From contig CAZUFC010000030.1 of NCBI GenBank assembly GCA_964619725.1, positions 19,804 to 70,867 of the forward strand: 51,064 bases of DNA, written 5' to 3'. This DNA is from an uncultured bacterium (lineage in GTDB: Bacteria; CSSED10-310; CAZUFC01). Both the position numbers and the translations under genes were made by a program. Each line of letters opens with the position of its first letter. The first letter of the stretch is position 1. The notes under the pieces are model-generated. The model made no database searches and was not told the origin of the DNA. It saw nothing but the letters and a program-made list of their open reading frames with translations. Shown here piece after piece: positions 14,137 to 50,686 of this stretch.

Positions 14137-14139
14137 AGT

Positions 14140-16463: not shown

Positions 16464-16476
16464 TTTAACGCTTCCT

Positions 16477-17461: not shown

Positions 17462-17462
17462 A

Positions 17463-19002: not shown

Positions 19003-19303
19003 GTCGACTCTCCCTTTTAACCCAGCGCCAGGCGTTTAAACAGCCCAAAGCCACTCCTATCGACAGGAAAGTCAAAGTCCAGGATACGGAACCGTCCGTT
19101 TCGGCATCGAGCCACAAACCTACGGCGAGTCCGATCAGCGTCGGTATCACGACAGACCAGCCGATTATGCCGAACATGCCCAGGCCGTACCAGAGGCTTT
19201 TTTCCTTTTCACGTCGCGCCTTTAATTTACGGCTTTCTTCCTTTCCTATTTCTTCTGAGAATTCTTCAGCGTTTCTTTGTTCGTCATTTTTTTCTTCGTT
19301 CAT
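18995..19303 (-). CDS. atpQ: N-ATPase-associated small membrane protein (AtpQ / AtpZ/AtpI-like).
   Basis: The 102-aa ORF has a charged N-terminus and two TM helices. It sits after atpC as in N-ATPase operons. Confidence 0.6.
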   Translation of the reverse strand: MNEEKNDEQRNAEEFSEEIGKEESRKLKARREKEKSLWYGLGMFGIIGWSVVIPTLIGLAVGLWLDAETDGSVSWTLTFLSIGVALGCLNAWRWVKRESRHD

Positions 19304-19306
19304 TTT

Positions 19307-21198
<1,892 letters not shown>

Positions 21199-26932: not shown

Positions 26933-27075
26933 TGTCAAAAACACTTCTCTTAAGGTTGCAATTCGACAAAATATCCCATCATTTTGTTTTGATTTCGATC
27001 CCTATACCGGCCCCCGATTACTGAAACAAACCGTCATAAGTTTTTAAAGATGTGTAACCCGGTTTGACCAGTCCC
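26933..27075 (-). repeat. Family B MITE-like element, full copy in reverse orientation with a minimal core of about 3 units.
   Basis: The reverse complement reads aattagggactggtcaaaccgggttacacatctttaaaaacttatgacggtttgtttcagtaatcgggggccggtatagggatcgaaatcaaaacaaaatgatgggatattttgtcgaattgcaaccttaagagaagtg. Confidence 0.8.
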
Positions 27076-27326: not shown

Positions 27327-27701
27327 CTATGATGCCCGTACTCTCTGTTTGATCCTGTTGTTTATTTCTTTTTTCAAGTCGTCTAAATCTTCTGTTTTGC
27401 GGACGAAAGCATCAGCGCACCAGGTTCTGAAATTGCAACTGAAATCGTTACAATTCGAGTGCAGAATAATGGGCGTATCGCGTTTACTGCCGGCAATCTG
27501 CTGAATGGCCTGCAGACCTGATTCGAGCGATTTTGAGATGTCGAAAACTACCACGTCGGGCGCATGAATATCCACCAGGTCTGGAGCAATGTCATAATTT
27601 CCCGTCATTATAAGGCGGTGGCCGTTTGTTTTAAGATTTTTTTCGTATATCCTCCGATATACGTCATCTTTATCCGCCACAAGGATTTTTGCCATAACCA
27701 T
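27327..27701 (-). CDS. Stand-alone response regulator receiver domain.
   Basis: The receiver fold is KILVADKDDVYRRIY...VVVFDISK. I place the start at an ATG with an aggagg SD at 27701. The ORF track begins at 27716. Confidence 0.7.
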   Translation of the reverse strand: MVMAKILVADKDDVYRRIYEKNLKTNGHRLIMTGNYDIAPDLVDIHAPDVVVFDISKSLESGLQAIQQIAGSKRDTPIILHSNCNDFSCNFRTWCADAFVRKTEDLDDLKKEINNRIKQRVRAS

Positions 27702-27857
27702 GTACTCCTCCTGCAACGATCGATATGCGTCTCGACCGCCGATCGAAAAATATTCTCCTTACTTCACCGAGATATTTTTATAGCCCATACGTTCCTTCCG
27801 GAAAATTTTCCCGGATTAAAACCGGAACCTGCAAGGAAAGATTAAGCAATTCTCGTG

Positions 27858-28415: not shown

Positions 28416-29780
28416 ATGGCGAAAGAAATAAAACTTCCGGAAATATCGGAGAACATTCATGAGGCTGAAGTGGTTGAAGTATTGGTATCCGAAGGGGACC
28501 AGGTGAAGAAGGATCAGGCCGTGGCTGAAATGGAAACGGAAAAATCGATATTCGAGATACCGTCGCCTTCTGCGGGCAAAATAACCGAACTCGCCATAAA
28601 AAAAGGCGATACGGTCAAAGTGGGCGATCTGATAGCCCGGCTTGATACGGAAGAGGAAGTTGAAGAGGAAGAACCTCCGGAAACCGAAAAAACGGAACGC
28701 AAAAGAGAGAAAAAACAGGCAGCACCTGAAGAGGAAGAACCGACGGAGCCCGAAGAAGAACCGAAGGAACCTGAAGCAGAACCGGAAGAAGAAAAAGAAA
28801 AGGAGGAGGAGAGAGTTGAATCCGGGAAAGAAGAAGAGGTCAAAGAAGTAAAGAAGCAGAAGGAGTCTGAGCGAGAGGAGCCAGAAAGAGGCCCGGCTCC
28901 AGCAGCGCCGTCGGTGCGCCGGCTGGCGGCGGAACTCGGTATAGAGATACATGATGTCCGGGGTTCAGGACCAGGAGGCCGGATAACCCGCGACGACGTA
29001 AAATCACATACCCGCGAGTTGATTGAAAGCCCGGCCGGTCAGGAACATAAGCGATTGCCTGATTTTTCCCAATGGGGTCCGGTGCATCGGGAACCCATGA
29101 GCAAGGTCAGGCGCATAACCGCCGAAAGCATGTCTTACTCCTGGAGGACTGTTCCTCATGTGACTCAGTTCAGCAAAGCGGACGTCACGTCAGCCGAAGA
29201 ATTCCGGAAAAAAAATACGGAGAGGGCGAAAAAGGAAGGCGGCAAACTGACGTTGACCTCTATTCTGATAAAGCTGTCGGCGCTGGCGTTACAGCGGTTT
29301 CCCCGTTTCGGCGCTTCGCTGGACGAGCAGAATCAGGAATTAATATATAAAGATTACATTCACATAGGTTTTGCCGTGGATACGGACCGCGGGTTGCTGG
29401 TACCGGTGATCAGGGATGCCGACAAAAAGGACATTTACAAATTATCGGCAGAAGTTTCGGGTCTGGCGGAAAAGGCCAAGAACAAAAAGATATCGCCAGA
29501 TGAGATGGAAGGCGGTTGTTTCACCGTCTCCAATCTGGGCGGCATAGGCGGAACAAATTTCACGCCCATTGTTTATGCTCCGCAAGCTGCTGTCCTGGGC
29601 GCAGACCGCGCCGAAATGATGCCGGTATACGAAAACGGCGAATTTCATCCTCGCCTGATGTTGCCTCTTTCCCTGTCTTACGATCACAGGATCATTGACG
29701 GCGCTGACGGAGCCAGATTCATGCAATGGATGAAAAACGCTCTGGAGAACCCGTTATCGATACTGCTGGAAGGAGAATGA
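28416..29780 (+). CDS. 2-oxoacid dehydrogenase E2 (dihydrolipoamide acyltransferase) with lipoyl, E/K-rich linker, PSBD and catalytic domains.
   Basis: The lipoyl Lys is in AEMETEKSIFEI. The peripheral subunit-binding domain is PSVRRLAAELGIEIHDVRGSGPGGRITRDD. The C-terminal catalytic motif is DHRIIDGADGARF. Confidence 0.95.
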   Translation: MAKEIKLPEISENIHEAEVVEVLVSEGDQVKKDQAVAEMETEKSIFEIPSPSAGKITELAIKKGDTVKVGDLIARLDTEEEVEEEEPPETEKTERKREKKQAAPEEEEPTEPEEEPKEPEAEPEEEKEKEEERVESGKEEEVKEVKKQKESEREEPERGPAPAAPSVRRLAAELGIEIHDVRGSGPGGRITRDDVKSHTRELIESPAGQEHKRLPDFSQWGPVHREPMSKVRRITAESMSYSWRTVPHVTQFSKADVTSAEEFRKKNTERAKKEGGKLTLTSILIKLSALALQRFPRFGASLDEQNQELIYKDYIHIGFAVDTDRGLLVPVIRDADKKDIYKLSAEVSGLAEKAKNKKISPDEMEGGCFTVSNLGGIGGTNFTPIVYAPQAAVLGADRAEMMPVYENGEFHPRLMLPLSLSYDHRIIDGADGARFMQWMKNALENPLSILLEGE

Positions 29781-29783
29781 ACC

Positions 29784-31229
29784 ATGCCTGACATTCAGAA
29801 GACCGAAGTAGCTGTTATCGGCGCCGGTCCTGGGGGTTATGCGGCGGCTTTTCTGTCTGCAGACCTGGGGATGCGAACCGTCATGATTGACCCTTTGCCG
29901 AATCCGGGCGGCGTATGTCTGTTTCGAGGCTGCATCCCTTCGAAAGCATTACTGCACGTGGCCCGTCAAATCAGGGAAGCCGGAACGGCCGAAAAATTCG
30001 GGCTTCATTTCGGAGAACCTGAAATAAAAATCGATCAGATAAGGGACTGGAAAAATGATACAGTGAAAAAACTGACGGAAGGTCTCGGACTCCTGGCCAG
30101 ACAAAAGAAGGTGAAGCATCTCCGGGGCAAAGCCCGTTTTTTGGATTCTCACTCAATTGAAATCGAAACTTCTGATAATTCCGGCAAACAAAAACTCCAA
30201 TACGATCACGCCATACTCGCTACGGGAGGATATCCCGCCAAACTGCCCGGAATTGAACTCGAATCCGACAGAATCTGGTATTCCTCCGAAGCGCTGGATG
30301 TTCCTCAAATACCTGAAACGCTGCTCGTCGTCGGAAGCGGGTACATCGGCCTGGAGTTGGGGACGTTCTACGCTGCCTTAGGCGCTCGAGTTACCCTGAT
30401 AGAGATCATGCCGGGAATACTGCCGGGCATCGACCGTGACCTGACGGATACTTTCCTGAAAGCGAACGAAAATTTGTTCGAGAATATTTATACTTCAACC
30501 AGAATCGCGGATGTTAAAGAAAAAAACGGAAAACTCGACGTTTTCTTTGAAAGCGAAAACGGCAACGCTCCTCAATCCGCCTCTTTTGACAATATACTTG
30601 CCGCAATCGGCAGGAAACCCTATACATCCGGCCTGGATTTGGACAATACAAAGGTTGAATTGAACGAACGGGGATATGTCAAGGTCAATAAGCAAAGGCA
30701 AACGGACGATCCGGCCATTCATGCCGTCGGAGACCTGACCGGCGATCCCCTCCTGGCGCACAAGGCTACACACGAAGGCCGCACCGCAGCCGAGGACATC
30801 GCAGGATTAACGACTTTTTTCGATCCTGCAGCCATACCCGCAGTGGAATATACCGATCCCGAAATTGCGGTATGCGGGTTGTCCGAAACCGAAGCCGAAC
30901 AGCAGAACAAAAAAATAGAAACCGCGAAATTCCCCTGGCAGGCTTCCGGCAGGGCCCTCACCATGGGCAGAAATCATGGACTCACTAAACTGATAATCGA
31001 TCCCGATACAGAACGCATTCTGGGTATGGGCATAGTGGGAGCGGACGCCGGAGAACTTATCTCCGAAGGGGTTCTGGCGATTGAAATGGCTGCTGTGGTC
31101 AAAGACCTGGCCCTTTCCATCCATCCGCACCCCACGTTATCCGAAACGCTGATGGAGGCGGCGGAAGCCTACTACGGAAAAAGCACGCACTTTCACGGTA
31201 AAAGGAGACGGCGAAAGAAGAAAAAATGA
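29784..31229 (+). CDS. lpdA: Dihydrolipoyl dehydrogenase (E3).
   Basis: The FAD motif is VIGAGPGGYAAA and the redox-active disulfide is GGVCLFRGCIPSK. The C-terminal HP..E motif (HPHPTLSE) is present. There is an unusual polybasic C-terminal tail, GKRRRRKKKK. Confidence 0.9.
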   Translation: MPDIQKTEVAVIGAGPGGYAAAFLSADLGMRTVMIDPLPNPGGVCLFRGCIPSKALLHVARQIREAGTAEKFGLHFGEPEIKIDQIRDWKNDTVKKLTEGLGLLARQKKVKHLRGKARFLDSHSIEIETSDNSGKQKLQYDHAILATGGYPAKLPGIELESDRIWYSSEALDVPQIPETLLVVGSGYIGLELGTFYAALGARVTLIEIMPGILPGIDRDLTDTFLKANENLFENIYTSTRIADVKEKNGKLDVFFESENGNAPQSASFDNILAAIGRKPYTSGLDLDNTKVELNERGYVKVNKQRQTDDPAIHAVGDLTGDPLLAHKATHEGRTAAEDIAGLTTFFDPAAIPAVEYTDPEIAVCGLSETEAEQQNKKIETAKFPWQASGRALTMGRNHGLTKLIIDPDTERILGMGIVGADAGELISEGVLAIEMAAVVKDLALSIHPHPTLSETLMEAAEAYYGKSTHFHGKRRRRKKKK

Positions 31230-31313
31230 ATTCTGCGTCAAAAAAAGAGTTCGCAATGAAGATAAATCGAAAAACGTATTCATCTATAGAGAAAACATCC
31301 AAGGAGGATATAA

Positions 31314-32072
31314 ATGAATGACGAAATGAAAGGTAAAGTATTTCTGGTAACAGGAGGAAGCACGGGAATAGGAAAAGCGGCAGCTCTCGCTTTCGCACGA
31401 AACGGGGCCGATGTGGTCGTTGCTGACGTACAGGAAAAAAAGGGATTGTATACTGTCGAGGAAATTCAGGATATGGACCGAAGAGCAATTTACGTGCAAA
31501 CGGACGTTTCACAGGTCGAACAGGTTGAAAACATGATCACAAAGACCCTGGATGAATTCGGACGGCTGGATTACGCTTTCAACAATGCGGGGATCGAGGG
31601 GGAGCAGGCGCCCACGGCAGAATGCACCGAAGGGAACTGGGACAGGGTGATCAACATAAACCTTAAAGGCGTATGGCTTTGCATGAAATATGAGATACCG
31701 GAGATAGTGAAACAGGGAGGAGCCATCGTCAACAACTCCTCTGTCGCAGGGAAAGTAGGCTTCATAAACATTCCTGCTTACACGGCAAGTAAACACGGCG
31801 TACTGGGACTGACCAAGGCTGCGGCGCTTGAATATGCGAATCGGGGTATTCGCATCAATGCGGTATGTCCCGGAATAATCGCCACTGAAATGATCGAGCG
31901 TTTCACGCAAAACAATGAAGAAGTGAGAAAAGAACTTCTTGCGACAGAACCCATCGGACGAATGGGCAAACCGGAAGAAGTGGCGGACGTCGTGCTGTGC
32001 CTGTGCTCAGAAAGAGCATCCTACATCACGGGTCATGCCCTTAATGTGGACGGCGGATACGTTTCCCGCTGA
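31314..32072 (+). CDS. Short-chain dehydrogenase/reductase (SDR) family oxidoreductase.
   Basis: The Rossmann motif is TGGSTGIGKAAA and the catalytic residues are NNSS..Y..ASK (YTASKHG). Confidence 0.9.
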   Translation: MNDEMKGKVFLVTGGSTGIGKAAALAFARNGADVVVADVQEKKGLYTVEEIQDMDRRAIYVQTDVSQVEQVENMITKTLDEFGRLDYAFNNAGIEGEQAPTAECTEGNWDRVININLKGVWLCMKYEIPEIVKQGGAIVNNSSVAGKVGFINIPAYTASKHGVLGLTKAAALEYANRGIRINAVCPGIIATEMIERFTQNNEEVRKELLATEPIGRMGKPEEVADVVLCLCSERASYITGHALNVDGGYVSR

Positions 32073-32214
32073 TTACGCGAAAAAGCGTTCGCCGGCCTGC
32101 AATGCCCTGATATTGAATTAGGGTTTTTCATAAAGAAGGCTGCTCGTATTTCACGAAATGGAGTCAGTAGCCGTCGCTGCAATAAAATCAGCAAATGACA
32201 TTCAAGGAGAAAAT

Positions 32215-34890
32215 GCAATGGAAGAGAGGCAGCAGACTGATATAAAGGAATTTGAGAACCGGGAATGGCTGGAGTCGCTGGAATTCGTCTTTCAGGATGA
32301 AGGTCCTGCCAGGGTGGAGGAGCTTCTGACTCTGTTGAACAACCGCGCCAAAAAAGAGGGCGCGGAATTCGCCTGTCCTGCGACCACCCCTTACATCAAT
32401 ACGATTCCCCAGAACCGACAGCCGCCTTATCCCGGAAGCCGGGAGATCGAAAGACGCATCAAAAGCATCATACGCTGGAACGCCATGGCTATGGTGGTGA
32501 GGGCCAATCGCGAGGCGAGCGGCATAGGTGGCCATATCTCGACTTATGCGTCGCAGGCGACTTTGTTTGAGGTGGCGTTCAACCATTTTTTGAGAGCTAA
32601 AACGGAGGATCATTTCGGCGATATAGTTTACTACCAGGGGCATGCTTCACCGGGGATTTACGCACGCGCCTTTCTGGAAGGCCGTTTGCAAGAGAAGGAC
32701 CTGGGAAATTTCCGAAGAGAACTGAAAAAGGGCGGAGGGCTGACTTCTTATCCGCATGCCTGGCTGATGGATGATTTCTGGAGATTTCCCACGGTATCCA
32801 TGGGATTGTCGCCCATACAGGCGATATATCATGCCCGTTTTTTGCGTTATATGGAGGACAGAGGTTTGAAGGAACCTTCCGATGAGAATGTCTGGGCCTT
32901 CCTGGGCGACGGAGAAATGGACGAACCTGAATCGATGGGCGCCATTACCCTGGCCTCCCGCGAAAACCTGGACAACCTCATTTTCGTTATAAACGCCAAC
33001 CTGCAGAGGCTTGACGGTCCGGTAAGAGGCAACGGCAAGATCATTCAGGAGCTGGAAGCGGCCTTTCGCGGCGCCCGCTGGAACGTCATCAAAGTCATCT
33101 GGGGGGGTGACTGGGACACGCTGCTGGATAAAGATGATGAAGGCGTTCTGATCGATGCCATGAACAAAGTCCTGGACGGAGAGTTCCAGAAATATACCGT
33201 CGAAGGCGGGGCTTATATCCGCGAACACTTCTTCGGTCAGGACCCCAGACTGAAGGAAATGGTGAAAAATTATTCGGATGAACAACTCGCGAAACTGCGA
33301 AGAGGAGGTCACGACCCGGAAAAAGTTTATGCCGCATATAAAGCCGCTGTCGAATATAAGGAGGGCCCTACCGTCATACTGGCTCAGACCATCAAGGGAT
33401 ACGGACTCGGCGAAGCAGGCGAAGGAAAAAACATTACGCACCAGCAGAAAAAACTCAATGAAAAAGAACTGCGCTATTTCCGGGGACGCTTCGGCATCCC
33501 CGTTTCTGACGACGATTTGCCCGATGCCCCCTTCTACAAACCCGCAGACGACAGCGAGGAAATCCGTTACCTCCGGGAGCGCCGGAAAGCCCTGGGAGGT
33601 TTCGTTCCTTCCCGATCAGTAACCGTCGAACCTTTGAAAACGCCCGAAAGCAGCTTCTTTGATGAATATTATGAAGGAATGGGCGACAGGGAAGTCGCAA
33701 CCACCATGGTCTTTGTCCATATGCTGTCACGTTTGATGAAACATGAAGAAATCGGCAAGCTGATCGTTCCCATCGTCCCTGACGAAGCCAGAACATTCGG
33801 CATGGAATCACTGTTCCGGCAGGCCGGGATATACTCTCATACCGGACAACTCTACGAACCCGTCGACAGGGAAAGCCTGCTTTACTACAAGGAAGCGCAG
33901 GACGGCGCCATACTGGAAGAAGGAATAACAGAAGCCGGCTGCATGTCATCGTTCATTGCCGCAGGAACAGCCTATTCTAATCTCAATATCAACATGATCC
34001 CCGTCTTCCTGTTCTATTCCATGTTCGGATTCCAGCGCATAGGCGACCTGATATGGGCCGCTGGAGATGCCGGCGCCAAAGGGTTCCTGGCAGGAGGCAC
34101 TTCAGGCAGAACCACTCTCCCCGGCGAAGGTCTGCAGCACCAGGACGGCAACAGCCATCTTCTGGCCTATCCCCATCCTTCCGTCAAAGCATACGACCCC
34201 GCATACGCATACGAAGTTGCAGTCATCGTTCGCGAAGGTCTACGGAGAATGTACGAAAAACAGGAAAACTGGATATACTACCTGACCATAATGAACGAGT
34301 TCTATAAACAGCCCCCCATGCCCGAAGGCGTCGAAGAAGGAATATTGAAAGGCCTTTATAAATATAAAAATGCCGAAAATCAAACTGATTCCGATAAAAA
34401 AGCGCACCTCTTCGGAAGCGGCGCCATACTCAACGAAGCGCTGGATGCTCAATCGCTCCTCCAGGATAAATACGACATACCCGCAGACGTCTGGAGCGTC
34501 ACCAGCTATAAAGAACTCCACCAGGACGCCCTGGCAGCAGACAGATACAACATGATCCACCCGGATGAAAAGCCCAGACTTTCCTACCTGGAAAACGTTT
34601 TATCGGATGAAAAAGGAGTCTTCGTCGCAGCAAGCGATTACGTCAAAGCGCTTCCCGCTTCCGTGGCAAAATGGATGCCCGGACCTTACAAAATCCTGGG
34701 AACAGATGGTTTCGGCAGAAGCGATACACGGCAGGCGCTCAGAGATTTCTTTGAAGTCGACAGCCGTTACATCACTCTCGCTGCACTTCACGCCCTTCAC
34801 GAAAAAAAGGCTATCGACGATGATCTCATTAAAAAAGCGATCAAAGACCTGGATATAAATCCAAATAAACCCAATCCCGCGTATGAATGA
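32215..34890 (+). CDS. aceE: Pyruvate dehydrogenase E1 component, homodimeric AceE type.
   Basis: The roughly 890-aa ORF has an N-terminus (MEERQQTDIKEFENREWLESLEFV) that is colinear with E. coli AceE (..ETRDWLQAIESV). The ThDP-binding motif is GDGEMDEPES. I start it at an ATG with an aaggag SD. The ORF track starts at 32158. Confidence 0.9.
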   Translation, partial: AMEERQQTDIKEFENREWLESLEFVFQDEGPARVEELLTLLNNRAKKEGAEFACPATTPYINTIPQNRQPPYPGSREIERRIKSIIRWNAMAMVVRANREASGIGGHISTYASQATLFEVAFNHFLRAKTEDHFGDIVYYQGHASPGIYARAFLEGRLQEKDLGNFRRELKKGGGLTSYPHAWLMDDFWRFPTVSMGLSPIQAIYHARFLRYMEDRGLKEPSDENVWAFLGDGEMDEPESMGAITLASRENLDNLIFVINANLQRLDGPVRGNGKIIQELEAAFRGARWNVIKVIWGGDWDTLLDKDDEGVLIDAMNKVLDGEFQKYTVEGGAYIREHFFGQDPRLKEMVKNYSDEQLAKLRRGGHDPEKVYAAYKAAVEYKEGPTVILAQTIKGYGLGEAGEGKNITHQQKKLNEKELRYFRGRFGIPVSDDDLPDAPFYKPADDSEEIRYLRERRKALGGFVPSRSVTVEPLKTPESSFFDEYYEGMGDREVATTMVFVHMLSRLMKHEEIGKLIVPIVPDEARTFGMESLFRQAGIYSHTGQLYEPVDRESLLYYKEAQDGAILEEGITEAGCMSSFIAAGTAYSNLNINMIPVFLFYSMFGFQRIGDLIWAAGDAGAKGFLAGGTSGRTTLPGEGLQHQDGNSHLLAYPHPSVKAYDPAYAYEVAVIVREGLRRMYEKQENWIYYLTIMNEFYKQPPMPEGVEEGILKGLYKYKNAENQTDSDKKAHLFGSGAILNEALDAQSLLQDKYDIPADVWSVTSYKELHQDALAADRYNMIHPDEKPRLSYLENVLSDEKGVFVAASDYVKALPASVAKWMPGPYKILGTDGFGRSDTRQALRDFFEVDSRYITLAALHALHEKKAIDDDLIKKAIKDLDINPNKPNPAYE

Positions 34891-35000
34891 CTGTTCTTCA
34901 CGATCAATCCGTTGATTAAACCGGCATAGCTGATGTGACTAAATTTAAAATCTTATTCACCTGACGCACAAGGCGGCAGGGGCCGTGTTTGTTATTGTGG

Positions 35001-35202
35001 GCCTGATCAAACACGGATTACACTTCTTTCAAAATTTTCGACAGTTTGTTTCAGCAATAGGTATCGGGATCGGATTCGGTTTCGGCGGCCGTATCGGTAT
35101 CGGGTCGGATTCGGTTTCGGCGTCGGGATCGGCATCGCAATCCGAATAGCAATCGAAACAAAATGATGGAATATTCTGCCGAATTTTAACCTCAAAAGAC
35201 AC
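35001..35202 (+). repeat. Family B MITE-like element, full copy with a core of about 16 units.
   Basis: The L arm is gcctgatcaaacacggattacacttctttcaaaattttcgacagtttgtttcagcaatag. The core is gtatcgggatcggattcggtttcggcggccgtatcggtatcgggtcggattcggtttcggcgtcgggatcggcatcgcaatccgaatagcaatcg. The R arm is aaacaaaatgatggaatattctgccgaattttaacctcaaaagac. Confidence 0.85.
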
Positions 35203-35206
35203 TTTT

Positions 35207-35224
35207 CAGGCACAATTATTGCTT
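35207..35224 (+). promoter_or_regulatory. Sigma-54 -24/-12 promoter, aGGCACa-N4-TTGCT.
   Basis: GG 35209-10 and GC 35221-22 have the exact N10 spacing. It is a near-consensus match to TGGCACG-N4-TTGCW. The predicted TSS at about 35233 lies upstream of the Hsp20 gene. Confidence 0.55.
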
Positions 35225-35358
35225 CCTAATTCGGTGAGAGTTATTGATTTTTTGATCATAAAAATTCTGCGGGCATAATGAACTTCTGCGATACACAAAG
35301 TAAAAAAATTATCAACATATTGGAAAACAGAAGGCGTTATGTTTATGGAGAAACAAAA

Positions 35359-35838
35359 ATGGAAATAAGCGCCAATGAATTCAGAAGAAATACAAACAAT
35401 GGAAGAGCGAACCGTTTTCCGAAATTTGAAAAACCGGAAAACGGAGCTTCAAAACCTGAGCCCCGAAACAGTTGGCTGCCGCTGACCGACATTATGGAAG
35501 CGGACACCAAGGTTATTGTTTTAGTCGAACTGCCGGGAATGGAATCGGATCAGGTCGAACTGGAAATCGAAAATAATTTTTTAACGATTCGTGGGGAGAA
35601 ACCCAACGATCTGTTTGAAACGGATCATTATCTTCATAATTGTGAGAGGTACAGCGGAATATTTCAAAGGATTTTTTTGCTTCCCCACAATCTGGTTGTA
35701 AAAAATGCTCACGCCTGGTTTAAAAACGGTTTACTGACCGTCGAGATTCCAAAGTGGGGCGGAGATACGCCGTATTTCAGCAACGTAAGAAGAGCCGGGC
35801 AAATGGAACATCCGAAACACACAATTCGAATCGAATGA
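35359..35838 (+). CDS. Hsp20 / alpha-crystallin family small heat-shock protein, second copy.
   Basis: The alpha-crystallin domain is WLPLTDIMEADTKVIVLVELPGMESDQVELEIENNFLTIRGEK...GLLTVEIPK. I chose the ATG with a ggag SD, giving 159 aa. The ORF-track start at 35278 has no SD. Confidence 0.8.
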   Translation: MEISANEFRRNTNNGRANRFPKFEKPENGASKPEPRNSWLPLTDIMEADTKVIVLVELPGMESDQVELEIENNFLTIRGEKPNDLFETDHYLHNCERYSGIFQRIFLLPHNLVVKNAHAWFKNGLLTVEIPKWGGDTPYFSNVRRAGQMEHPKHTIRIE

Positions 35839-35865
35839 TTTGAAATTTCATCTAAGAAATGCAAA

Positions 35866-35902
35866 GAACGGATTGGAACCATTTCCAATCCGGTTCTTTT
35901 AT
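35866..35902 (+). terminator. Intrinsic terminator after Hsp20-2.
   Basis: aagaacggattggaacc atttc caatccggttctt forms a stem of about 13 bp, followed by ttttatg. Confidence 0.6.
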
Positions 35903-36235
35903 GCATTGGTTAATCCGGGAACTGATGAAAAATGATGAATTCAAACAAAATATTTTGATTTCCGATCATTTTTTCATCGGCGATCAGGAGGAGAAAGAAG
36001 GAACTTTTTTTGAATTTAAATAGGAAAACAGACATGGTATGGCATCGTCACACTTCATGCTCCGACAATGACTGCGTATCCGATGCTGTGTTCGATAAAG
36101 CCGGAGGTTGAAATTCCCGGAAAATGTAATATGCTGTATTTTTTCCCTGCGCCGGTTCCTGATAAGGCGAACGGCTTCCGGTTGCTCGAAGTATTCAGAA
36201 TTCTGTAAACGGGAACTCAACGGAAAGGATGAATC

Positions 36236-36517
36236 ATGAAGATAAAACACGTGGAAGGAAAAGACCGGGGCAAAATAATGTTGTATGCCATCAGCACATG
36301 CGTCTGGTGTAAAAAAACCAAAAGGTTGCTGGACGAACTGGGTGCAGCATACGATTATATAGATGTGGACACCCTGTCGCAGGAAGAAAAAGAACAAACA
36401 AAAAAGGAGATGCAGGCTTGGAATCCGCGACTGTCTTACCCCACTCTTATCATCAATAGTGAAGCCGTAGTGGGGTACAAGGAAGACAAAATAAGGAAAT
36501 TGCTCGAAAAAGATTAA
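36236..36517 (+). CDS. Glutaredoxin-like / NrdH-like small thiol-disulfide protein.
   Basis: The 93-aa ORF has a CVWC active-site motif near the N-terminus (MLYAISTCVWCKKTK) and a thioredoxin-fold pattern (..YPTLIIN..). An aaaggatg SD is present. Confidence 0.8.
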   Translation: MKIKHVEGKDRGKIMLYAISTCVWCKKTKRLLDELGAAYDYIDVDTLSQEEKEQTKKEMQAWNPRLSYPTLIINSEAVVGYKEDKIRKLLEKD

Positions 36518-36541
36518 CAGGAGTCTGTTAAGGAGAAAAAT

Positions 36542-37063
36542 ATGGCTGAAAACAACGACATTCCTCAGAAGCAAATCGATGATCTTTATGAAAAGCTGGA
36601 CAGAGAAGCGGAGGAGTCCGGATATCACCTGAATCCGGATGAAGAATTCACCAAAGAACTCGTCAAGGGATTGATCACAAACGAGAAAAGGTACGGATAC
36701 CCGGCATGCCCCTGCCGCCTGGCCGAAGGCGATAAAATAGAAGACCTGGACATCATCTGTCCCTGCGATTACAGAGATGCGGACCTGAATGACTACGACG
36801 CGTGCTATTGCGCTCTTTATGTGACGCAGGAGGTTGTAGAAGGCAAAAAAGAAGCCGCTTCCATACCTGAAAGACGCCCGCCCAGAGAGGAAAGAAGTCA
36901 GATCAAAAGGCAGAAACCGGCCCAAAGCGCGTCTGAACTGCCCTACACTGTCTGGCGATGCAAGGTTTGCGGTTACCTCTGCGCAAGAGAACAACCGCCC
37001 CAGGTCTGCCCCGTATGCTTCGCCAAAAAAGACAGGTTTGAAGTCTTTATCAGAAGCAAGTAA
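36542..37063 (+). CDS. Ferredoxin:thioredoxin reductase catalytic-subunit-like domain fused to a C-terminal rubredoxin domain (FTR-Rd fusion).
   Basis: The FTRC cysteine pattern is [24 protein letters not shown]...DACYCALY, i.e. CPC-x16-CPC-x..-CxC. The C-terminus reads WRCKVCGY...CPVCF, a rubredoxin CxxCG...CPxC pattern. A ggagaaaaat SD is present. Confidence 0.8.
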
Positions 37064-37180
37064 TGCGACTGAGCAAATGGGTATACATTTTGTCCCGGCA
37101 ATAAATCGGCCTATTGAAATAGCGTTGCCAAAGCCGGCTGTTATGCACATTTGACACGCGACCCCGGATTTCGGGAAGAA

Positions 37181-37290
37181 TCAGACCGGGTTTATACTAC
37201 TTTCAAGACTTTTGACGGTTTGTTTCAGTAATCGGGGCCGGTATCGGAATCGGGGGTGAAATCGGTAACGAAATCGAAACAAAATTCATT
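37181..37290 (+). repeat. Family B MITE-like element with a short core of about 6 units and a degenerate R arm.
   Basis: tcagaccgggtttatactactttcaagacttttgacggtttgtttcagtaatcggggccggtatcggaatcgggggtgaaatcggtaacgaaatcgaaacaaaattcatt. Confidence 0.8.
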
Positions 37291-37383
37291 AACCGCAGCG
37301 GGGCTGTGAAAGGTGAAGAAACGATAAAGGTTAATTCCAGGGCCAAATGCCTAAATTCGACAGAATAAGCAAACTGCACAGGG

Positions 37384-37604
37384 TAACGTGAATAAAAACT
37401 CATTAAAATTTTAACCCCTCACGGAAGGTAAAGAAAAAAACTTCACCAAACCTATCAGGGGGATTTGAAAGGGTGCGCTGAACTGAAAGATTCATTCTGC
37501 TAAAGCAGGCTGGAAGCCTGCGCTCCCAGTAACCCCTCGTAATTGGGAATTCAGTTAGCGTGAATAAAAACTCATAAAAATTGAAACCCCTCACGGAAGG
37601 TAAA
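37384..37604. repeat. Two direct copies of a roughly 50-bp unit, 171 bp apart, in an 800-bp non-coding region.
   Basis: 37384-37433 is gtaacgtgaataaaaactcattaaaattttaacccctcacggaaggtaaag. 37555-37604 is gttagcgtgaataaaaactcataaaaattgaaacccctcacggaaggtaaaa. Confidence 0.7.
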
Positions 37605-38113
37605 AAATACAGCTCAATACAGCGTTCTGCCTAATAGCCGTCCATAAGCCTGAATCGTAAGTTTGATGCTTATGGACCTTTTTTCCGCTAATAAGTTTTT
37701 GTCCATAAACGGTGAATTTCCCCAAATGCTGCGTCAGGCTGCGGATTTGCTCAGTCAATGTATAAACAATACCCCTGCCTCGCAAATCCTTGCCTTCCTT
37801 GTCTTAAGAAAAATTCGCCCGTTTATGGATCAAAAACCCAAGTGGCTGTCCAGCATTAAATTTTGAATCGAGATTCGAGTTTGTGGACAGACACTAATAA
37901 GGTTATTATCCGGATATTTCAAAAGAAACAATGCCGTTTCAATCAGGTATGCTGAAAATATGCACACCATTTATCGTGAACCCTCACAGTTCTATTTTGG
38001 CTGAAAAGTTGCATAACGAAAATCAGGATGAATCGGGGAAATTTCTTCTGTTACAGCAGTCTTGAACAACAGCCGGAAATATCCCGCAAAGTTTAATCAA
38101 AAGGAGCAACAGT

Positions 38114-39478
38114 ATGAAAAATTATGATTATATTATAGTCGGCAACGGTTCGGGCGGGGCTCTGGCGGATGCGGCCGTTTCTCATAATCTGAAAATCGCG
38201 GTTATCGATAAAAAGCCCATCGGCGGGACATGCGAAAATTTCGGTTGCATTCCGTCCAAGATGCTGATGCTGCCGGCTCATCGTATAATGGAAATAAAAG
38301 AAGCCGCCAGATTGGGCATCAAAACGGAAATAACCGATACGAACTTCAGCGAAGTTATGGAAAGAATGCGGATACACCGGAAAGCGACCCAGGACCGCCG
38401 GTATGATGCTGTAAGAAATTCCCCTCCGATGGATTTTTATTTCGGCGAAGCGGAATTTACGGACGAATATACGTTAAGCATAAACGGCAAAACGCTCCGC
38501 GGCGAAAAAATAGTGATAGCGGCCGGAGCCCGTCCTTCACATCCGCCGATTGAGGGAATCGACAGCCACCCTACTTTGAATAATGAAACCGTCCTTGAAT
38601 TGAAACGTCTTCCACGCAGCATGATCATCATCGGCGGCGGATACATTGCAGCGGAATACGGACATTTTTTTTCAGCCTTCGGCAGTGAAGTAACGATCAT
38701 TGAACAGGGAAATCGATTATTGTCGAATGAAGAGCCGGAAATTTCAGAAGCGTTGGAGAAGGCTCTTGGAGATAGACTGAATATAGTTTTGAACGTTAAA
38801 GCTGAAAAAATGGAAGGCAATGATTACGGGCTCAGAATATCGGGACGGGATGAAAAAGGCGACTTGATGAAAATTGAAGCGGAAGAGCTGCTCATTGCGA
38901 CAGGTCGGATTTCTAATGCTGATGTATTAAAAGTTGGAAACACAGGCGTCGCCGTGGACGATCGCGGTTTCATCAGAGTGAACGAAAGGCTCGAAACAGG
39001 AAAAGAGGGCATCTGGGCGCTCGGAGACATTATCGGCAAGCAGATGTTCAAACATGTCGCCAATCGCGAGGCCGGCGTAGTCTTTGAAAACAGCATTCAC
39101 GGCGAAAAAATGGAGATGGACTACGATTCCATTCCTCATGCCGTCTTTACATATCCTGAAATAGCTTCACTCGGATACACGGAAAATCAGGCGCGAAAGA
39201 AACACGACATATGGGTCGGAAGAGCCGGTTATTCTGATACCGCCTGGGGACTGGCCATGCGGGAAGAAGAAGGATTCGTAAAAATAATTGTGGACCGGGA
39301 AAGCAGAAATGTCATCGGGGCCCACATTTTCGGACCCAACGCTTCAATGATAATCCAGGAGTTGATCAATGCCGCATCCGGCAAACATGACATAAGCGCT
39401 CTGGCAAATCCCATGCACATCCATCCGGCATTGCCTGAAGTGATAACTTCTGCGTTGTATAACCTGGAGGAAGTATAG
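38114..39478 (+). CDS. Class I pyridine-nucleotide disulfide oxidoreductase (dihydrolipoamide dehydrogenase / glutathione-reductase / mercuric-reductase-like flavoprotein).
   Basis: The FAD motif is IIVGNGSGGA and the redox-active CxxxxC is GGTCENFGCIPSK. The NAD(P) motif is IIGGGYIAAE. A C-terminal dimerisation domain with HIHPALPE is present. An aaaggag SD is present. Confidence 0.85.
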   Translation: MKNYDYIIVGNGSGGALADAAVSHNLKIAVIDKKPIGGTCENFGCIPSKMLMLPAHRIMEIKEAARLGIKTEITDTNFSEVMERMRIHRKATQDRRYDAVRNSPPMDFYFGEAEFTDEYTLSINGKTLRGEKIVIAAGARPSHPPIEGIDSHPTLNNETVLELKRLPRSMIIIGGGYIAAEYGHFFSAFGSEVTIIEQGNRLLSNEEPEISEALEKALGDRLNIVLNVKAEKMEGNDYGLRISGRDEKGDLMKIEAEELLIATGRISNADVLKVGNTGVAVDDRGFIRVNERLETGKEGIWALGDIIGKQMFKHVANREAGVVFENSIHGEKMEMDYDSIPHAVFTYPEIASLGYTENQARKKHDIWVGRAGYSDTAWGLAMREEEGFVKIIVDRESRNVIGAHIFGPNASMIIQELINAASGKHDISALANPMHIHPALPEVITSALYNLEEV

Positions 39479-39529: not shown

Positions 39530-41404
39530 TCAAAACCTGTATCCTATCGAAACCTCGACGATATCGGCCGTATAATCATTGAAATGGTGCAACTCTTCTT
39601 CATAATCTTCGTATCTGTATTCGGTTCTTATGAGCGCGCCTCCAAACATGGTCCATTCAATCCTGCCGCTTAACCGCATTTGACTGACAGGCCATGATTC
39701 ATCATTATCCATTACGACGAAATTTCCGCTTATGCTTCGACCTTCCTGGAATTCATACTCGACCATTCCATCAAGGATATGATTATCGGCTTCGTATTGA
39801 ACCGGCCATTGGAAAGCTCCTCCGGATGTGATGATTTCCTGGTCTATTTCGCGTTTGATGTTCCTGTATGAGTAACCCAGGTTCATAGTGAGACCGCTTT
39901 GATGATAAACGGCCCTGGCATTAAGATGATCGGAATCGGATTCCCAATCAGAATCATCGTTCACGGTTCTTTTGATCAGAGCAGTCGCAGTTATGGAAAA
40001 AAGTGAATTTATCCTGGTTTTAGCCTTAAGATAGAACCGGTGATATTCACCCGGAGCTGCCGTAACGTAAGGATCGTCCGCCTGTCCGTATTGATAATCT
40101 CCGGTTAATTTGAACTTTTGGATGGAGCTCCATTTGACGTGAGAAAACAAACCCAGGCGTTCGGTAACCGGCGGTTCCGATTCATATTCATATATCCCAT
40201 GACTGATATCCCGCGACTGGTACCTCGTTCCTAAACTCAGGAACAACCCAGGCGCCGGCGAATATTGTAATCCGGCTTCGCCTCTGTCTATATCATAATC
40301 CCAGTCCGTTTCAGTATCGCTTCCATCCATGTTCAACCATCCTTCCTGCGAAAGATCGCGCCGGTCGAACAGTCCTCCTAACGCCCATCGATCGCTTAAC
40401 CGGTATGATAATTCAACCTCGTAAGCCGTAATATCCCGCTCAACTTCTCCCTCTCCGCTGAAGAAAAAATCCGAATATGATCCCGAATAGCCGATTCCTT
40501 CCCCCTCCTCAGAATAATCATATTCCATATCCAGGTCTTCCCGGCTTACAATCGCATTAATGGTTAATCTTTTCACAGGATTCACAATTACCCGGAAAAT
40601 GTGATTGTAACTCATGAAGTCATACGGCATATTGAGAGCAAAATCGAACAACTCCGTAGCCCCACCTTCGTTTTCATCATCCTGTCCTGGAGAAGGTCCC
40701 GGAAGAAACGCCGAGAAATTGTTTTCATAATCCCTGATCCTTTCCTCCAAAACGAAACTGACTCGCTTAAACTTAATGTTCACTCCTGCTGAGTATTCAT
40801 ATTTCGTTTCATCGATCGGTTTATCGAGAATGAACAGGTCTCTTCCGTAGGAATAGGTGATTTCACTTATTCCTTCTTTGACGTATCTGGAAAAATTCAT
40901 GAATAGATCGAACCTGCTGCCCAACCGCACCTTCAGTGCAGCATCGTCGTATTCCCTGTCGAAATTGAAGGTGTGAAGGTCCCCTTCATTATTAATATGG
41001 TAATCGCTCAGTTCCTCCGGCCAAAGTATATCGTCATAGCTGTAAGCAGCCTTTCTTCTTTTATATCTGAACTGATAGCTTCCATATTTTCTTATGGTAA
41101 CTCCTGCCCTGTAAAAGGGATCGCCGCCTAAATCAGAAAGGCTTATTTCCATCTTGTCCGCAAGTTTTTTGAGCGACCCGGCCGGTTTGCAACGTAAATA
41201 AGCTTCCATCAGCCGAAATCCATCCTGCAGGTTGACGTGCTGATCATATTTTGATTCTGCGCCTCCGACATCGACGAACCGGTAACCAGCGACCAGCAAC
41301 CCTGAAAAACGGCTTTGCTCTTCCGACTGCGCCTTAAGGTAATTAAACGGCCCGGCTGCCGCCAGGAGCAATCCAAAAATAACAAATAATTTGTATGTTT
41401 TCAT
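39530..41404 (-). CDS. Outer-membrane beta-barrel protein, MtrB/MtoB/PioB-like in size. It is the presumed porin partner of the adjacent decaheme cytochrome.
   Basis: The roughly 624-aa mature-sized protein has a signal peptide (MKTYKLFVIFGLLLAAAGPFNYLKAQ). Amphipathic beta-strand character alternates along its length and it ends in an aromatic residue (...SIGYRF). I chose the internal Met start at 41404 so it does not overlap the cytochrome gene. It lies 24 nt downstream of the decaheme gene. Confidence 0.65.
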   Translation of the reverse strand: MKTYKLFVIFGLLLAAAGPFNYLKAQSEEQSRFSGLLVAGYRFVDVGGAESKYDQHVNLQDGFRLMEAYLRCKPAGSLKKLADKMEISLSDLGGDPFYRAGVTIRKYGSYQFRYKRRKAAYSYDDILWPEELSDYHINNEGDLHTFNFDREYDDAALKVRLGSRFDLFMNFSRYVKEGISEITYSYGRDLFILDKPIDETKYEYSAGVNIKFKRVSFVLEERIRDYENNFSAFLPGPSPGQDDENEGGATELFDFALNMPYDFMSYNHIFRVIVNPVKRLTINAIVSREDLDMEYDYSEEGEGIGYSGSYSDFFFSGEGEVERDITAYEVELSYRLSDRWALGGLFDRRDLSQEGWLNMDGSDTETDWDYDIDRGEAGLQYSPAPGLFLSLGTRYQSRDISHGIYEYESEPPVTERLGLFSHVKWSSIQKFKLTGDYQYGQADDPYVTAAPGEYHRFYLKAKTRINSLFSITATALIKRTVNDDSDWESDSDHLNARAVYHQSGLTMNLGYSYRNIKREIDQEIITSGGAFQWPVQYEADNHILDGMVEYEFQEGRSISGNFVVMDNDESWPVSQMRLSGRIEWTMFGGALIRTEYRYEDYEEELHHFNDYTADIVEVSIGYRF

Positions 41405-41427
41405 TATTATCCTCCCCGGAATGCCCT

Positions 41428-42312
41428 TTATTTGCCGAAATAAGACGACAGATTGGAACCGTGTATTGCAGCATGGCAATCAGTGCAATTCGATTGCCTG
41501 GTAAATCTCTGATGCCAGACCGGGACTTCAGCATGGCAACTATAGCACAAGTCCGCAACGCTCTGAAACAGCAGCAAATGCCGGTTTACGGAACCGTGAG
41601 GATCATGACAGCCGGTACACCCTTCTATTAAAACGCCTCCATGTTCATACAGGTAAGGCCCTCGTTTGAAAGCATGACACTTGTAGCATATCTGCGGATC
41701 GTAACCGCTCAGGTTCCTCCTCCTTGACGGTCCGTGCACCTCATGACATGATGTGCATACCATGAAACCTTCCTTCAACGGATGATGCTCATTCAAATTA
41801 AATCGCGCATATATCGAAGGATGACACTCTCGACACGATTCAACTGTGCTTTCCTTGAGCAGATAACCGGCGACCTCGTTTTCGGAATGGATGCTGTGAC
41901 ATCTCATGCAATCCGTACCGGTGAATCCATGAACGGAACTGAAAAACCTCGATGTTTTTTTCTTATGACATTGAACGCATGCAGCGGTTTTTGAAATAGG
42001 CGTTTCCTTCTCGCTGAACGTCGTCATTCCTGCTGTATTCGTATAATCCTCCACATGCGCTTTATATCCCTTATGACATGCCGCACAACTGAATTCGACA
42101 GATTCTCCGCCGTGGGCCTTTTTACGATCCAGAGAAACATGAGGGTTATCTTTGATCGAAGATACGACTTCATCATGACAACCCGCGCATAATCGGACAT
42201 CGGAGCTTTCCTGCGCTGCCGACGGAAAGTAAACGATATGCAACACGATCACGGTGAATATAAATGCCTGCACGACTGTGACATAATGTGTGCGGCGCAT
42301 GAGGAAATTCAT
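41428..42312 (-). CDS. Periplasmic decaheme c-type cytochrome, MtrA/MtoA/PioA/DmsE-like.
   Basis: The 294-aa ORF has a signal peptide and exactly ten CxxCH motifs: CAGCH, CAACH, CVQCH, CMRCH, CRECH, CTSCH, CYKCH, CTGCH, CYSCH and CTDCH. Confidence 0.85.
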   Translation of the reverse strand: MNFLMRRTHYVTVVQAFIFTVIVLHIVYFPSAAQESSDVRLCAGCHDEVVSSIKDNPHVSLDRKKAHGGESVEFSCAACHKGYKAHVEDYTNTAGMTTFSEKETPISKTAACVQCHKKKTSRFFSSVHGFTGTDCMRCHSIHSENEVAGYLLKESTVESCRECHPSIYARFNLNEHHPLKEGFMVCTSCHEVHGPSRRRNLSGYDPQICYKCHAFKRGPYLYEHGGVLIEGCTGCHDPHGSVNRHLLLFQSVADLCYSCHAEVPVWHQRFTRQSNCTDCHAAIHGSNLSSYFGK

Positions 42313-42354: not shown

Positions 42355-43155
42355 TCAAGAGTGAGAAAAAACGATGACCGCGTCAGGATCGATCACCTGA
42401 AAAGTAAAAGATTCCGTGAAATACAACCATACTTCCTTGCTGGAATGCTGTTCGTATCCCATTGAGAAATCATGTCCGAGAGTCAGACGAAAACTGCCTT
42501 CCCGTTGAGATGCCAGAAACATATCGTCGATATGAGGAGAAAATATTACCTCGCCTCCTATCAAGTCCTTTATCTGACGGTGCAGCGGATATCCTTTCAC
42601 AGTAGCCATCATCCTGCTCCACATATCGGGAGACATTACAAGCGAACAGGGTCCCGGTATGCCGGCTTTCCTGAATTTGATCATCCCCTCGGAAAGTTTT
42701 TCCATTAATGACTCAGCTCCGTCCGGATAAGGAATCACCTCATGCCCCGTTCCCTTCGCCAATCCCTCTATGCCGCCTGTATGAAAACCTTTATATACAG
42801 CCTTTTCCTCGAATGCGGCTATCTTGCGCGCAGCCTCCTCCATAGGTTCAATATCCGCATCCTCAGCCCCTCTGCTTATGTTGTCCAATTCCCATACATT
42901 CAGCTTAAAAGAAATACGGGTTTCCATCAGCGGTTTTACCTGGTGAAGACCGTACAGGACCTCCCGCTTGGGCTCCGATTCCAAAACCTGCAGACGGCCT
43001 GTCGATACTACTCCGAAATCCCATCCGTGAGGTCCATCTATCTCCACGAACTTTCTCGCCGTCAACGAGGTCCTGAATATTTCTCCCGCTCGTCCCCGTA
43101 ATTCCTCCCAGGCCCTATCGGATATGGGCGCTAACGATTGTCTCAATATGTCCAT
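42355..43155 (-). CDS. Family 1 encapsulin (linocin M18-like) nanocompartment shell protein.
   Basis: The 266-aa ORF is colinear with Thermotoga maritima encapsulin. MDILRQSLAPISDRAWEELRGRAGEIFRTSLTARKFVEIDGPHGWDF aligns with [47 protein letters not shown], and the match continues through the C-terminus (..TESFTFQVIDPDAVIV). Confidence 0.9.
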   Translation of the reverse strand: MDILRQSLAPISDRAWEELRGRAGEIFRTSLTARKFVEIDGPHGWDFGVVSTGRLQVLESEPKREVLYGLHQVKPLMETRISFKLNVWELDNISRGAEDADIEPMEEAARKIAAFEEKAVYKGFHTGGIEGLAKGTGHEVIPYPDGAESLMEKLSEGMIKFRKAGIPGPCSLVMSPDMWSRMMATVKGYPLHRQIKDLIGGEVIFSPHIDDMFLASQREGSFRLTLGHDFSMGYEQHSSKEVWLYFTESFTFQVIDPDAVIVFSHS

Positions 43156-43175
43156 TGGTTTCCTCCTTCTGTTTT

Positions 43176-43535
43176 CTAAGGTTTGCCTATCTTAAGGTCA
43201 GGGTTGTCGCTATCCTCTGATTCCGGTTCTTCATTTTCTTCCTGCATCTCCTCCAGCTCCGTTATGTCTCCTTCCTTAAACAGGTAAGTCCGCATCTCCT
43301 CATCCCAGCCCGGCATATTCCTTCTCAACCATTCCAGAATCATGCACGCATGCTCGATCTCCTCATCCCTGTTATGAGACAGAATTTTCTTCATCGCCTC
43401 ATCCGAAGCCGCATCAACCCTCTGGTTGTACCAATCCACAGCCTCGATTTCTTCTTTCAGACTGTGCAATGCACGTGTACAATCTCTGGTTAAATCCCTT
43501 AATTCATCAGTCGGTTCATGATATTCCGCCATTTT
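43176..43535 (-). CDS. Encapsulated ferritin-like cargo protein (EncFtn) with a C-terminal targeting peptide.
   Basis: The protein is about 119 aa. ExxH ferroxidase-type motifs are present (EEIEAVDWY; DEEIEHACM). An acidic linker is followed by a C-terminal ...DLKIGKP, which resembles the T. maritima cargo peptide GGDLGIRK. I start it at an ATG with an aaggag SD. The ORF track starts at 43613. It lies 20 nt upstream of the encapsulin gene. Confidence 0.75.
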   Translation of the reverse strand, partial: KMAEYHEPTDELRDLTRDCTRALHSLKEEIEAVDWYNQRVDAASDEAMKKILSHNRDEEIEHACMILEWLRRNMPGWDEEMRTYLFKEGDITELEEMQEENEEPESEDSDNPDLKIGKP

Positions 43536-43584
43536 TGCTGCTCCTTCCCGTTGAAAATACCAATAACTGAGTCTCTGAAAAAAG

Positions 43585-43604
43585 AAGCAAACGCCGTGCC
43601 TAAT
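43585..43604 (-). promoter_or_regulatory. Sigma-54 -24/-12 promoter, aGGCACG-gcgt-TTGCT, in front of the EncFtn-encapsulin-cytochrome-porin operon.
   Basis: The minus-strand sequence aggcacggcgtttgct matches TGGCACG-N4-TTGCW at every position except the first T. It lies about 50 nt upstream of the cargo-gene ATG. Confidence 0.6.
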
Positions 43605-43621
43605 TCTCAACACTGAATCAA

Positions 43622-50531: not shown

Positions 50532-50686
50532 GACTGATCAAACCTGTGTTACACTTCCTTAAAAACTTTCGACAGTTTGTTTCAGTGATCGGGGTCGGTA
50601 TCGGTATCGGGGTCGGGATCGCAATCGGGTGCAAAATCTAAATAAAATGATGGGAGGTTGCGGAGAATTGTAACCTCAAAAGACGC
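50532..50686 (+). repeat. Family B MITE-like element, full copy.
   Basis: gactgatcaaacctgtgttacacttccttaaaaactttcgacagtttgtttcagtgatc is followed by ggggtcggtatcggtatcggggtcgggatcgcaatcggg and then tgcaaaatctaaataaaatgatgggaggttgcggagaattgtaacctcaaaagac. Confidence 0.85.

Follow-up and report, generated by a model that had tools for sequence, protein, structure and literature searches.

How would a bacterium use a small glutaredoxin-like protein that is encoded directly in front of a reductase combining a ferredoxin:thioredoxin reductase (FTR)-like catalytic domain with a rubredoxin-like module, and from where would such a pair draw its electrons? This question is raised by two genes, here called grx and fdr, in a 51,064 nucleotide (nt) stretch of DNA from an uncultured bacterium (GC content 46.7%), the whole of which is referred to as the window. 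An earlier reading of the window, made without database searches and referred to below as the sequence-only reading, had described the two genes as a thiol-redox pair in which the upstream protein is a plausible substrate of the downstream reductase. Our analysis makes it likely that grx and fdr form a small operon encoding a ferredoxin-dependent, pyridine-nucleotide-independent protein-disulfide reducing system of the FDR/methanoredoxin kind, where FDR stands for ferredoxin:disulfide reductase, also called ferredoxin:glutaredoxin reductase.

Both open reading frames (ORFs) lie on the plus strand, at the coordinates and with the spacing that had been claimed for them. The first, grx (36236-36517), encodes a methanoredoxin-like glutaredoxin-fold protein of 93 residues, with the codons of its C22-V-W-C25 active site at 36299-36310. 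Its stop codon ends at 36517, and after a 24 nt intergenic spacer (36518-36541) carrying an AAGGAG ribosome-binding site the ATG of fdr follows at 36542, a spacing that would be compatible with co-transcription of the two genes. The product of fdr (36542-37063) has 173 residues and comprises an FTR catalytic subunit (FTRC)-like domain (residues 15-105, encoded at 36584-36856) and a rubredoxin-like Fe(Cys)4 module (residues 138-167, encoded at 36953-37042).

The catalytic domain of FDR matches FeThRed_B (PF02943) with an E-value of 1.6e-24 and 86.4 bits against a cut-off of 22, and with its cysteines aligned to the FTRC profile, of which positions 5-97 of 106 are covered by residues 15-105. The C-terminal module matches the rubrerythrin-type rubredoxin-like family PF21349 (E 2.5e-13, residues 138-167), and the classical Rubredoxin family PF00301 is not among the Pfam matches of FDR at E ≤ 0.01. 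Of the two Pfam families that the sequence-only reading had put forward for an HMM search, PF02943 was recovered and PF00301 was replaced by PF21349, and the domain order it described, an FTRC-like domain whose Tyr stands where plants have His and, after it, a rubredoxin-type Fe(Cys)4 module, was borne out by both families and by the CYC motif. The cysteines of the protein are C56-P-C58, C73-P-C75, C88-Y-C90, C140-x2-C143, C147 and C156-x2-C159, which gives a catalytic spacing of CPC-x14-CPC-x12-CYC; the CPC-x16-CPC spacing read previously was off by two.

The closest structural relative leaves little room in the choice of family. FDR is 62% identical over 162 residues (E 7.9e-68; query 9-170, chain 3-172) to 4TPU, the crystal structure of Methanosarcina acetivorans FDR released in 2015, and in pairwise alignment its CPC/CPC/CYC columns match those of both 4TPU and the plant FTRC 7BZK, the latter with CHC. 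When the FDR model was searched against the PDB with Foldseek, 4tpu ranked first (E 6e-19) and 7pwe second (E 2e-11), followed by the catalytic chains of plant and cyanobacterial FTR with E-values of about 1e-3. Residue conservation, taken from an alignment of 32 homologous sequences, was complete at C56, P57, C58, C73, P74, C75, C88, Y89, C90, C140, C143, C156 and C159, and the window FDR departed from the consensus solely at P54 (consensus W) and F160 (consensus K); judged by these residues it is a typical member of its family. On the basis of the alignment to FTR and FDR structures, C56, C73, C75 and C88 would be the ligands of a [4Fe-4S] cluster, C58 and C90 would form the redox-active disulfide, and Y89 would stand at the position of the plant His. 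The family is large, with at least 7,971 clusters of homologues (90% identity) at E ≤ 1e-10, and the NCBI product name of some of these is "ferredoxin:glutaredoxin reductase".

Among the homologues a longer form was also observed. Two tandem rubredoxin-like modules are present in six of 31 aligned FDR homologues (P0002, P0007, P0015, P0029, P0032 and P0055; 205-220 residues), the best-scoring ones included, with a duplicated segment that ends in CPxCKAKKxRFE, and 26 of 119 other listed homologues share this length class. We know of no description of a tandem-rubredoxin FDR variant.

The upstream protein belongs to the Glutaredoxin family (PF00462, E 3e-13) and holds one CxxC motif, C22-V-W-C25. 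Its closest relatives of known structure are 5CAX (E 3.8e-29, 55% identity), in which the stretch STCVWCKKTK is identical, and 3NZN (E 1.4e-28). The chain label of 5CAX in our search was simply "Glutaredoxin"; we take the entry to be the methanoredoxin (MRX) of M. acetivorans. A classical glutathione-dependent glutaredoxin was considered and rejected, as Grx scores below the cut-offs of the glutaredoxin equivalog models TIGR02181 (Grx3; 33 bits, cut-off 90) and TIGR02180 (GRX_euk; 26.3 bits, cut-off 87.25).

The pair as a whole can be compared with three characterised arrangements. The nearest is that of M. acetivorans, where FDR (4TPU) and MRX (5CAX) share with the window pair the two-domain architecture, the length of 173 residues, the CPC/CPC/CYC motifs, the Cys4 module and the CVWC active site. 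According to work cited in three papers, FDR reduces a thioredoxin and methanoredoxin uses FDR (PMC6262447, PMC6491703, PMC7278568); the thioredoxin is named there as MaTrx5 (PMC6262447), and PMC7278568 describes an active-site [4Fe-4S] cluster in FTRs and FDRs and the use of CoM-SH (coenzyme M) as the reductant of M. acetivorans MRX in an insulin reduction assay. The statement of the sequence-only reading that FTR-rubredoxin fusions are biochemically uncharacterised did not hold up, as the M. acetivorans FDR has been crystallised (4TPU) and, going by the same papers, assayed. The two systems differ in that coenzyme M, the reductant of the M. acetivorans MRX, is not expected in the bacterial host of the window. 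The LigA of this host is nearest, at ~66% identity, to metagenome-assembled genomes (MAGs) labelled Aminicenantes or Desulfobacterales, and its best named matches as a whole (~65-67%) bear mixed labels, Acidobacteriota, Chloroflexota and Clostridiales among them.

The second arrangement is bacterial. In 7PWE, a crystallised natural Grx/FDR fusion from Desulfotalea psychrophila, the Grx domain is 37% identical to the window Grx (E 1.6e-13) and the FTRC-like domain 54% identical to that of the window FDR (E 2.1e-36), with CPC/CPC/CYC kept. The fusion differs from the window pair in its layout: the glutaredoxin is joined N-terminally, and the chain, at 196 residues, is too short to include a rubredoxin module, whereas the window has a separate grx gene and a C-terminal rubredoxin module. 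This fusion is independent evidence that Grx and FDR would act together.

The third arrangement, the FTR of plants and cyanobacteria, is more distant. It has the same catalytic fold and the same six-cysteine cluster/disulfide site, and phmmer E-values against the window FDR range from 1.8e-6 to 1e-3, but identity is only ~20%, the third motif is CHC rather than CYC (Y89), and a separate variable subunit stands where the window FDR has a fused rubredoxin-like module. The partner of FTR is a classical WCGPC thioredoxin, in contrast to the glutaredoxin-fold partner in the window, and the cysteine spacing of plant and cyanobacterial FTR is x16/x8 compared with x14/x12 in the window FDR. A plant-type FTR was rejected on account of CYC in place of CHC and of the fused module. 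FeThRed_A had no match among the 35 ORFs scanned against Pfam, which are most of the window ORFs of at least 100 residues, the small ORFs having not been scanned exhaustively. By all of the sequence-level criteria tested, the window pair belongs to the FDR/methanoredoxin system.

The pairing of the two genes is not peculiar to the window. We surveyed the best 80 of at least 567 pattern-matched stretches in species-representative genomes, in which FDR is 59-71% identical to that of the window. The bacterial and other groups represented include Chloroflexota, WOR-3, Ignavibacteria, Thermodesulfobacteriota, Syntrophales, Spirochaetota, Acidobacteriota, Aminicenantes and Zixibacteria, together with Thermoplasmatota, Methanothrix, Methanocrinis, Methanoregula, Methanobacteriota and Hadarchaeum. 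A tblastn search with the window Grx as query found a homologue (36-64% identity) upstream of fdr and on the same strand at 77 of the 80 loci, or 77 of the 78 that could be assessed: of the three loci lacking it, two are cut off less than 120 nt upstream, which leaves L054 as the only one where upstream sequence is present and the homologue is not. The gap between the two genes is at most about 105 nt at 74 loci, and at the methanogen loci surveyed (Methanothrix, Methanocrinis, Methanoregula and Methanobacteriaceae) a glutaredoxin gene likewise lies directly 5' of fdr. The redoxin motif at the 77 loci is always CxWC, namely CVWC (38), CGWC (20), CIWC (13), CPWC (4), CAWC (1) and CQWC (1). On the reductase side, CPC-x14-CPC-x12-CYC is kept at 72 of the 80 loci, with a CFC variant at four, and the CxxC...CPxC rubredoxin pattern is present at all of them. 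Homology, synteny at 77 of 78 loci and the natural fusion 7PWE together make the CVWC Grx the likely substrate of FDR, as the sequence-only reading had supposed from the adjacency of the genes.

Other neighbours are far less constant, and clustering of the neighbouring genes at the 80 loci found nothing conserved besides Grx. Among the 16 most recurrent clusters, of which eight were confirmed by Pfam and the rest judged by eye, no family occurs at more than eight loci. They include cysteine desulfurase (8 loci), NifU (7), two subunits of 2-oxoacid:ferredoxin oxidoreductase (7 and 6), superoxide reductase (6), rubrerythrin (5), and flavodiiron protein, Bcp peroxiredoxin and Rrf2 (4 each); P-type ATPase and nitroreductase also recur near grx-fdr. 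By their predicted functions these families point to defence against oxidative stress, upkeep of Fe-S centres and provision of ferredoxin.

What the data show is homology, intact catalytic residues, a matching fold, a conserved operon and natural fusions; which cofactors FDR carries, where its electrons come from, how they travel and which proteins they reach in the cell we infer as follows. Single electrons from reduced ferredoxin or flavodoxin would enter at the C-terminal Fe(Cys)4 centre (C140, C143, C156 and C159) and be handed on to the active-site [4Fe-4S] cluster (C56, C73, C75 and C88), which would open the C58-C90 disulfide by two successive one-electron reductions, Tyr89 sitting where plant FTR has its catalytic His. 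The resulting C58/C90 dithiol would reduce the C22-C25 disulfide of the CVWC Grx by thiol-disulfide exchange, and reduced Grx would then reduce its oxidised targets; the most plausible setting is the repair of oxidative damage in a bacterium living anaerobically or microaerophilically. There is a high probability that the scheme is right from FDR to the redoxin, and much less that any particular downstream target of Grx has been named correctly. In the published scheme for this type of enzyme the rubredoxin centre serves as an internal relay, filling the site that the variable subunit occupies in FTR, and reduced ferredoxin stays the external donor. Prakash et al. (2018) reportedly proposed the rubredoxin centre as an electron relay from ferredoxin to the cluster, and are also said to have found that the active-site Tyr replaces the essential His of FTR. 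The suggestion of the sequence-only reading that the rubredoxin centre might take over the donor role of ferredoxin is at odds with the published scheme, in which ferredoxin is the external donor.

Several points weigh against the scheme. The window holds no ferredoxin or flavodoxin gene, and in the literature we found no biochemistry for any bacterial rubredoxin-type FDR. Part of the scheme known from methanogens cannot be transferred, because MRX also uses coenzyme M, which most bacteria lack. The AlphaFold2 model of FDR, built with 32 homologues, has a moderate mean predicted local distance difference test score (pLDDT) of 72.8, falling below 50 in the loop 59-77, as expected for a model without the cluster. 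Its domain arrangement differs from 4TPU by a root-mean-square deviation of 17.8 Å. The model is uninformative as to how far the rubredoxin centre lies from the cluster.

Three other explanations of the pair were weighed, one of which involves a gene further downstream. At 38114-39478 on the plus strand lies a mycothione-reductase-like class I flavoprotein disulfide reductase (Pyr_redox_2 and Pyr_redox_dim, with a CENFGC redox motif), which the sequence-only reading had pointed out as a neighbour of the pair. Its closest relatives in the PDB are mycothione reductases (E 1e-81), it falls below every NCBIfam equivalog cut-off, and it shares no more than 26% identity with the E3 component of the pyruvate dehydrogenase operon of the window (28416-34890). 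Such an enzyme could make the system NAD(P)H-linked, by keeping a low-molecular-weight thiol reduced or by acting directly on the CVWC Grx, beside or instead of FDR. This would agree with the acceptance of a low-molecular-weight thiol, coenzyme M, as reductant by MRX, as described in PMC7278568. A homologue of the flavoprotein (42-48% identity) lies within 4 kb of grx-fdr at five of the 80 loci (L019, L023, L030, L035 and L071, from Anaerolineae, Thermoplasmatales, Methanothrix and Methanocrinis), at L030 directly upstream and on the same strand, and by rough reckoning this linkage is commoner than for a random gene family. However, the homologue is missing at the other 75 loci, the five linked loci represent about three lineages and so are not independent, and in the window 1,050 nt of non-coding sequence with dispersed repeats stand between fdr and the start of the flavoprotein gene. 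The gene itself is real, then, and its link to grx-fdr is weak; the linkage is a hint with no conserved partnership behind it, the flavoprotein is probably not part of the grx-fdr system, and an NAD(P)H-linked system is improbable. A related possibility is that the methanoredoxin-like protein serves as a two-input hub, fed by ferredoxin through FDR and by NAD(P)H through the flavoprotein and a low-molecular-weight thiol, in bacteria and archaea that have neither glutathione nor coenzyme M. Its sole support is the recurrence of the flavoprotein family beside grx-fdr, here and at the five loci, and we consider such a hub unlikely.

Alternatively, the pair could be the dedicated electron supply of an anaerobic (class III) ribonucleotide reductase. 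There is a precedent in Methanosarcina barkeri, where an FDR and an NrdH-like redoxin were reported to supply NrdD, and many homologues of Grx carry the automatic label "glutaredoxin-like protein NrdH" of the Joint Genome Institute (JGI). NrdH redoxins resemble Grx in being small glutaredoxin-fold proteins with a CVxC motif, and are recognised by a CVQC active site, a WSGFRP motif and nrdEF or nrdI as neighbours. Grx has CVWC instead of CVQC, no W.GFRP motif was found in any frame of the window, and Grx scores well below the cut-offs of the NrdH models (TIGR02194, 33.4 bits against 85.75; NF007657, 24.7 bits against 131). Nor was any nrdD, nrdG, nrdE or nrdF domain detected in the 35 Pfam-scanned ORFs, and the 16 neighbour clusters that recur most often at the 80 loci include no ribonucleotide reductase-like family. 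NrdH was therefore rejected as the identity of Grx, in agreement with the sequence-only reading, which had remarked on the lack of nrdEF nearby, and a role of the pair as a dedicated supply of ribonucleotide reductase is very unlikely. That the fused rubredoxin centre replaces ferredoxin and takes its electrons from another reductase, e.g., an NADH:rubredoxin oxidoreductase, would suit the lack of a ferredoxin gene near grx-fdr and the tandem rubredoxin modules of some close homologues, which could form a longer internal wire to another partner, but it is highly improbable given that no rubredoxin reductase is adjacent in the window or among the recurrent neighbours, that 2-oxoacid:ferredoxin oxidoreductases, which make reduced ferredoxin, recur at 6-7 of the 80 loci, and that ferredoxin dependence is part of both the name and the description of the characterised orthologue (4TPU, by its title; PMC7278568).

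The ferredoxin-dependent FDR/methanoredoxin system is already known: one archaeal and one bacterial member have been crystallised, its biochemistry has been published and NCBI has a curated name for it. The copy in the window is an ordinary one, and the locus bears out that in anaerobic Bacteria and Archaea the FDR/methanoredoxin module is very widespread, with its two genes tightly linked. For annotation this means that "NrdH" is the wrong name for the upstream gene, and that the fusion should be called neither a plant-type FTR nor a "rubredoxin". On the physiological donor, the targets of the CVWC redoxin and any low-molecular-weight thiol partner in bacteria, the window locus offers no special handle compared with the thousands of other copies.

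Transcription signals around the two genes were sought by consensus scanning. A weak sigma-70-like promoter candidate (TTGAAA-16-TATGCT, 9/12 matches) lies at 36108-36135 on the plus strand, 100 nt 5' of grx, in a region where the number of sigma-70-like sites is not above that in shuffled sequence. A 14 nt palindrome at 36194-36208, 5' of grx, was rejected as an operator, as it occurs once in the window and its occurrence is no more than chance would give. The sequence 3' of fdr showed no stable or terminator-like structure (z-score +1.24). Upstream, hsp20 (35278-35838) is followed by a terminator-like hairpin with a 10-bp stem and a T-rich tail (35869-35892, plus strand, from the consensus scan alone), and hsp20 is a neighbour at none of the 80 loci; on both grounds it was treated as a separate unit and not as part of the system. 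Given the strong family matches of both sense genes, a 388-residue antisense ORF (35984-37150) was dismissed as spurious.

Two kinds of repeat surround these genes. The first is a dispersed non-coding element of ~200 nt, present in six copies in 51 kb where shuffled sequences gave an expectation of zero. The copies are located at 71-98, 4418-4445 and 27021-27048 on the minus strand and at 35027-35054, 37201-37228 and 50558-50585 on the plus strand, and full elements extend over about 34990-35200 and 37165-37300. The element is built of a conserved 5' module GGGGACTGATCAAACCGGGGTTACACTTCTTTAAAAACTTTTGACAGTTTGTTTCAGTAAT, a variable array in which ATCGGN-type hexamers number from 2 to about 13, and a conserved 3' module AAAATGATGGGATATTCTGTCGAATTGTAACCTCAAAAGAAGC. 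The hsp20-grx-fdr block is flanked by two copies in direct orientation; one copy lies ~80 nt 5' of hsp20 and another ~350 nt 5' of the gene for a Lon-like protease. A small coding gene was rejected, as no frame is consistently open across the six copies, and the element has no match in Rfam, which gave none for the whole window at the gathering score or for 34890-38120 at E ≤ 1. Possible identities are a regulatory element, a small RNA and an element resembling a miniature inverted-repeat transposable element (MITE); as a regulatory element it might be stress-responsive and shared by hsp20-grx-fdr and the Lon-like gene. The second is a 59 nt direct repeat containing ATTGAAACCCCTCACGGAAGG, in the 1,050 nt non-coding gap between fdr and the flavoprotein gene, whose two copies (37384-37442 and 37556-37614) are 86% identical and 172 nt apart. 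With merely two copies, it was rejected as an array of clustered regularly interspaced short palindromic repeats (CRISPR).

Further from the pair, the ~2 kb between 26306 and 28416, upstream of the pyruvate dehydrogenase operon, contain almost no convincing coding sequence; they hold one sizeable ORF (27327-27716, minus strand, 129 residues) and one copy of the dispersed repeat. The ATP synthase operon (13237-21180, minus strand) includes a gene of the Na+/H+ exchanger family (17767-19002) among its atp genes, a layout reminiscent of N-type ATPase operons. On the other side of the flavoprotein gene, an encapsulin shell (Linocin_M18) and its EncFtn cargo (42355-43613, minus strand) adjoin a multihaem c-type cytochrome and a 649-residue outer-membrane beta-barrel-like protein (39530-42312, minus strand), and the region has the look of a cluster for iron storage or stress, with what may be a module for extracellular electron transfer next to it. 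The other genes of the window include those for the Lon-like protease, BON-domain proteins, a second Hsp20, PolX, LigA and PAS histidine kinases, and by its predicted functions this remaining gene content has a stress flavour.

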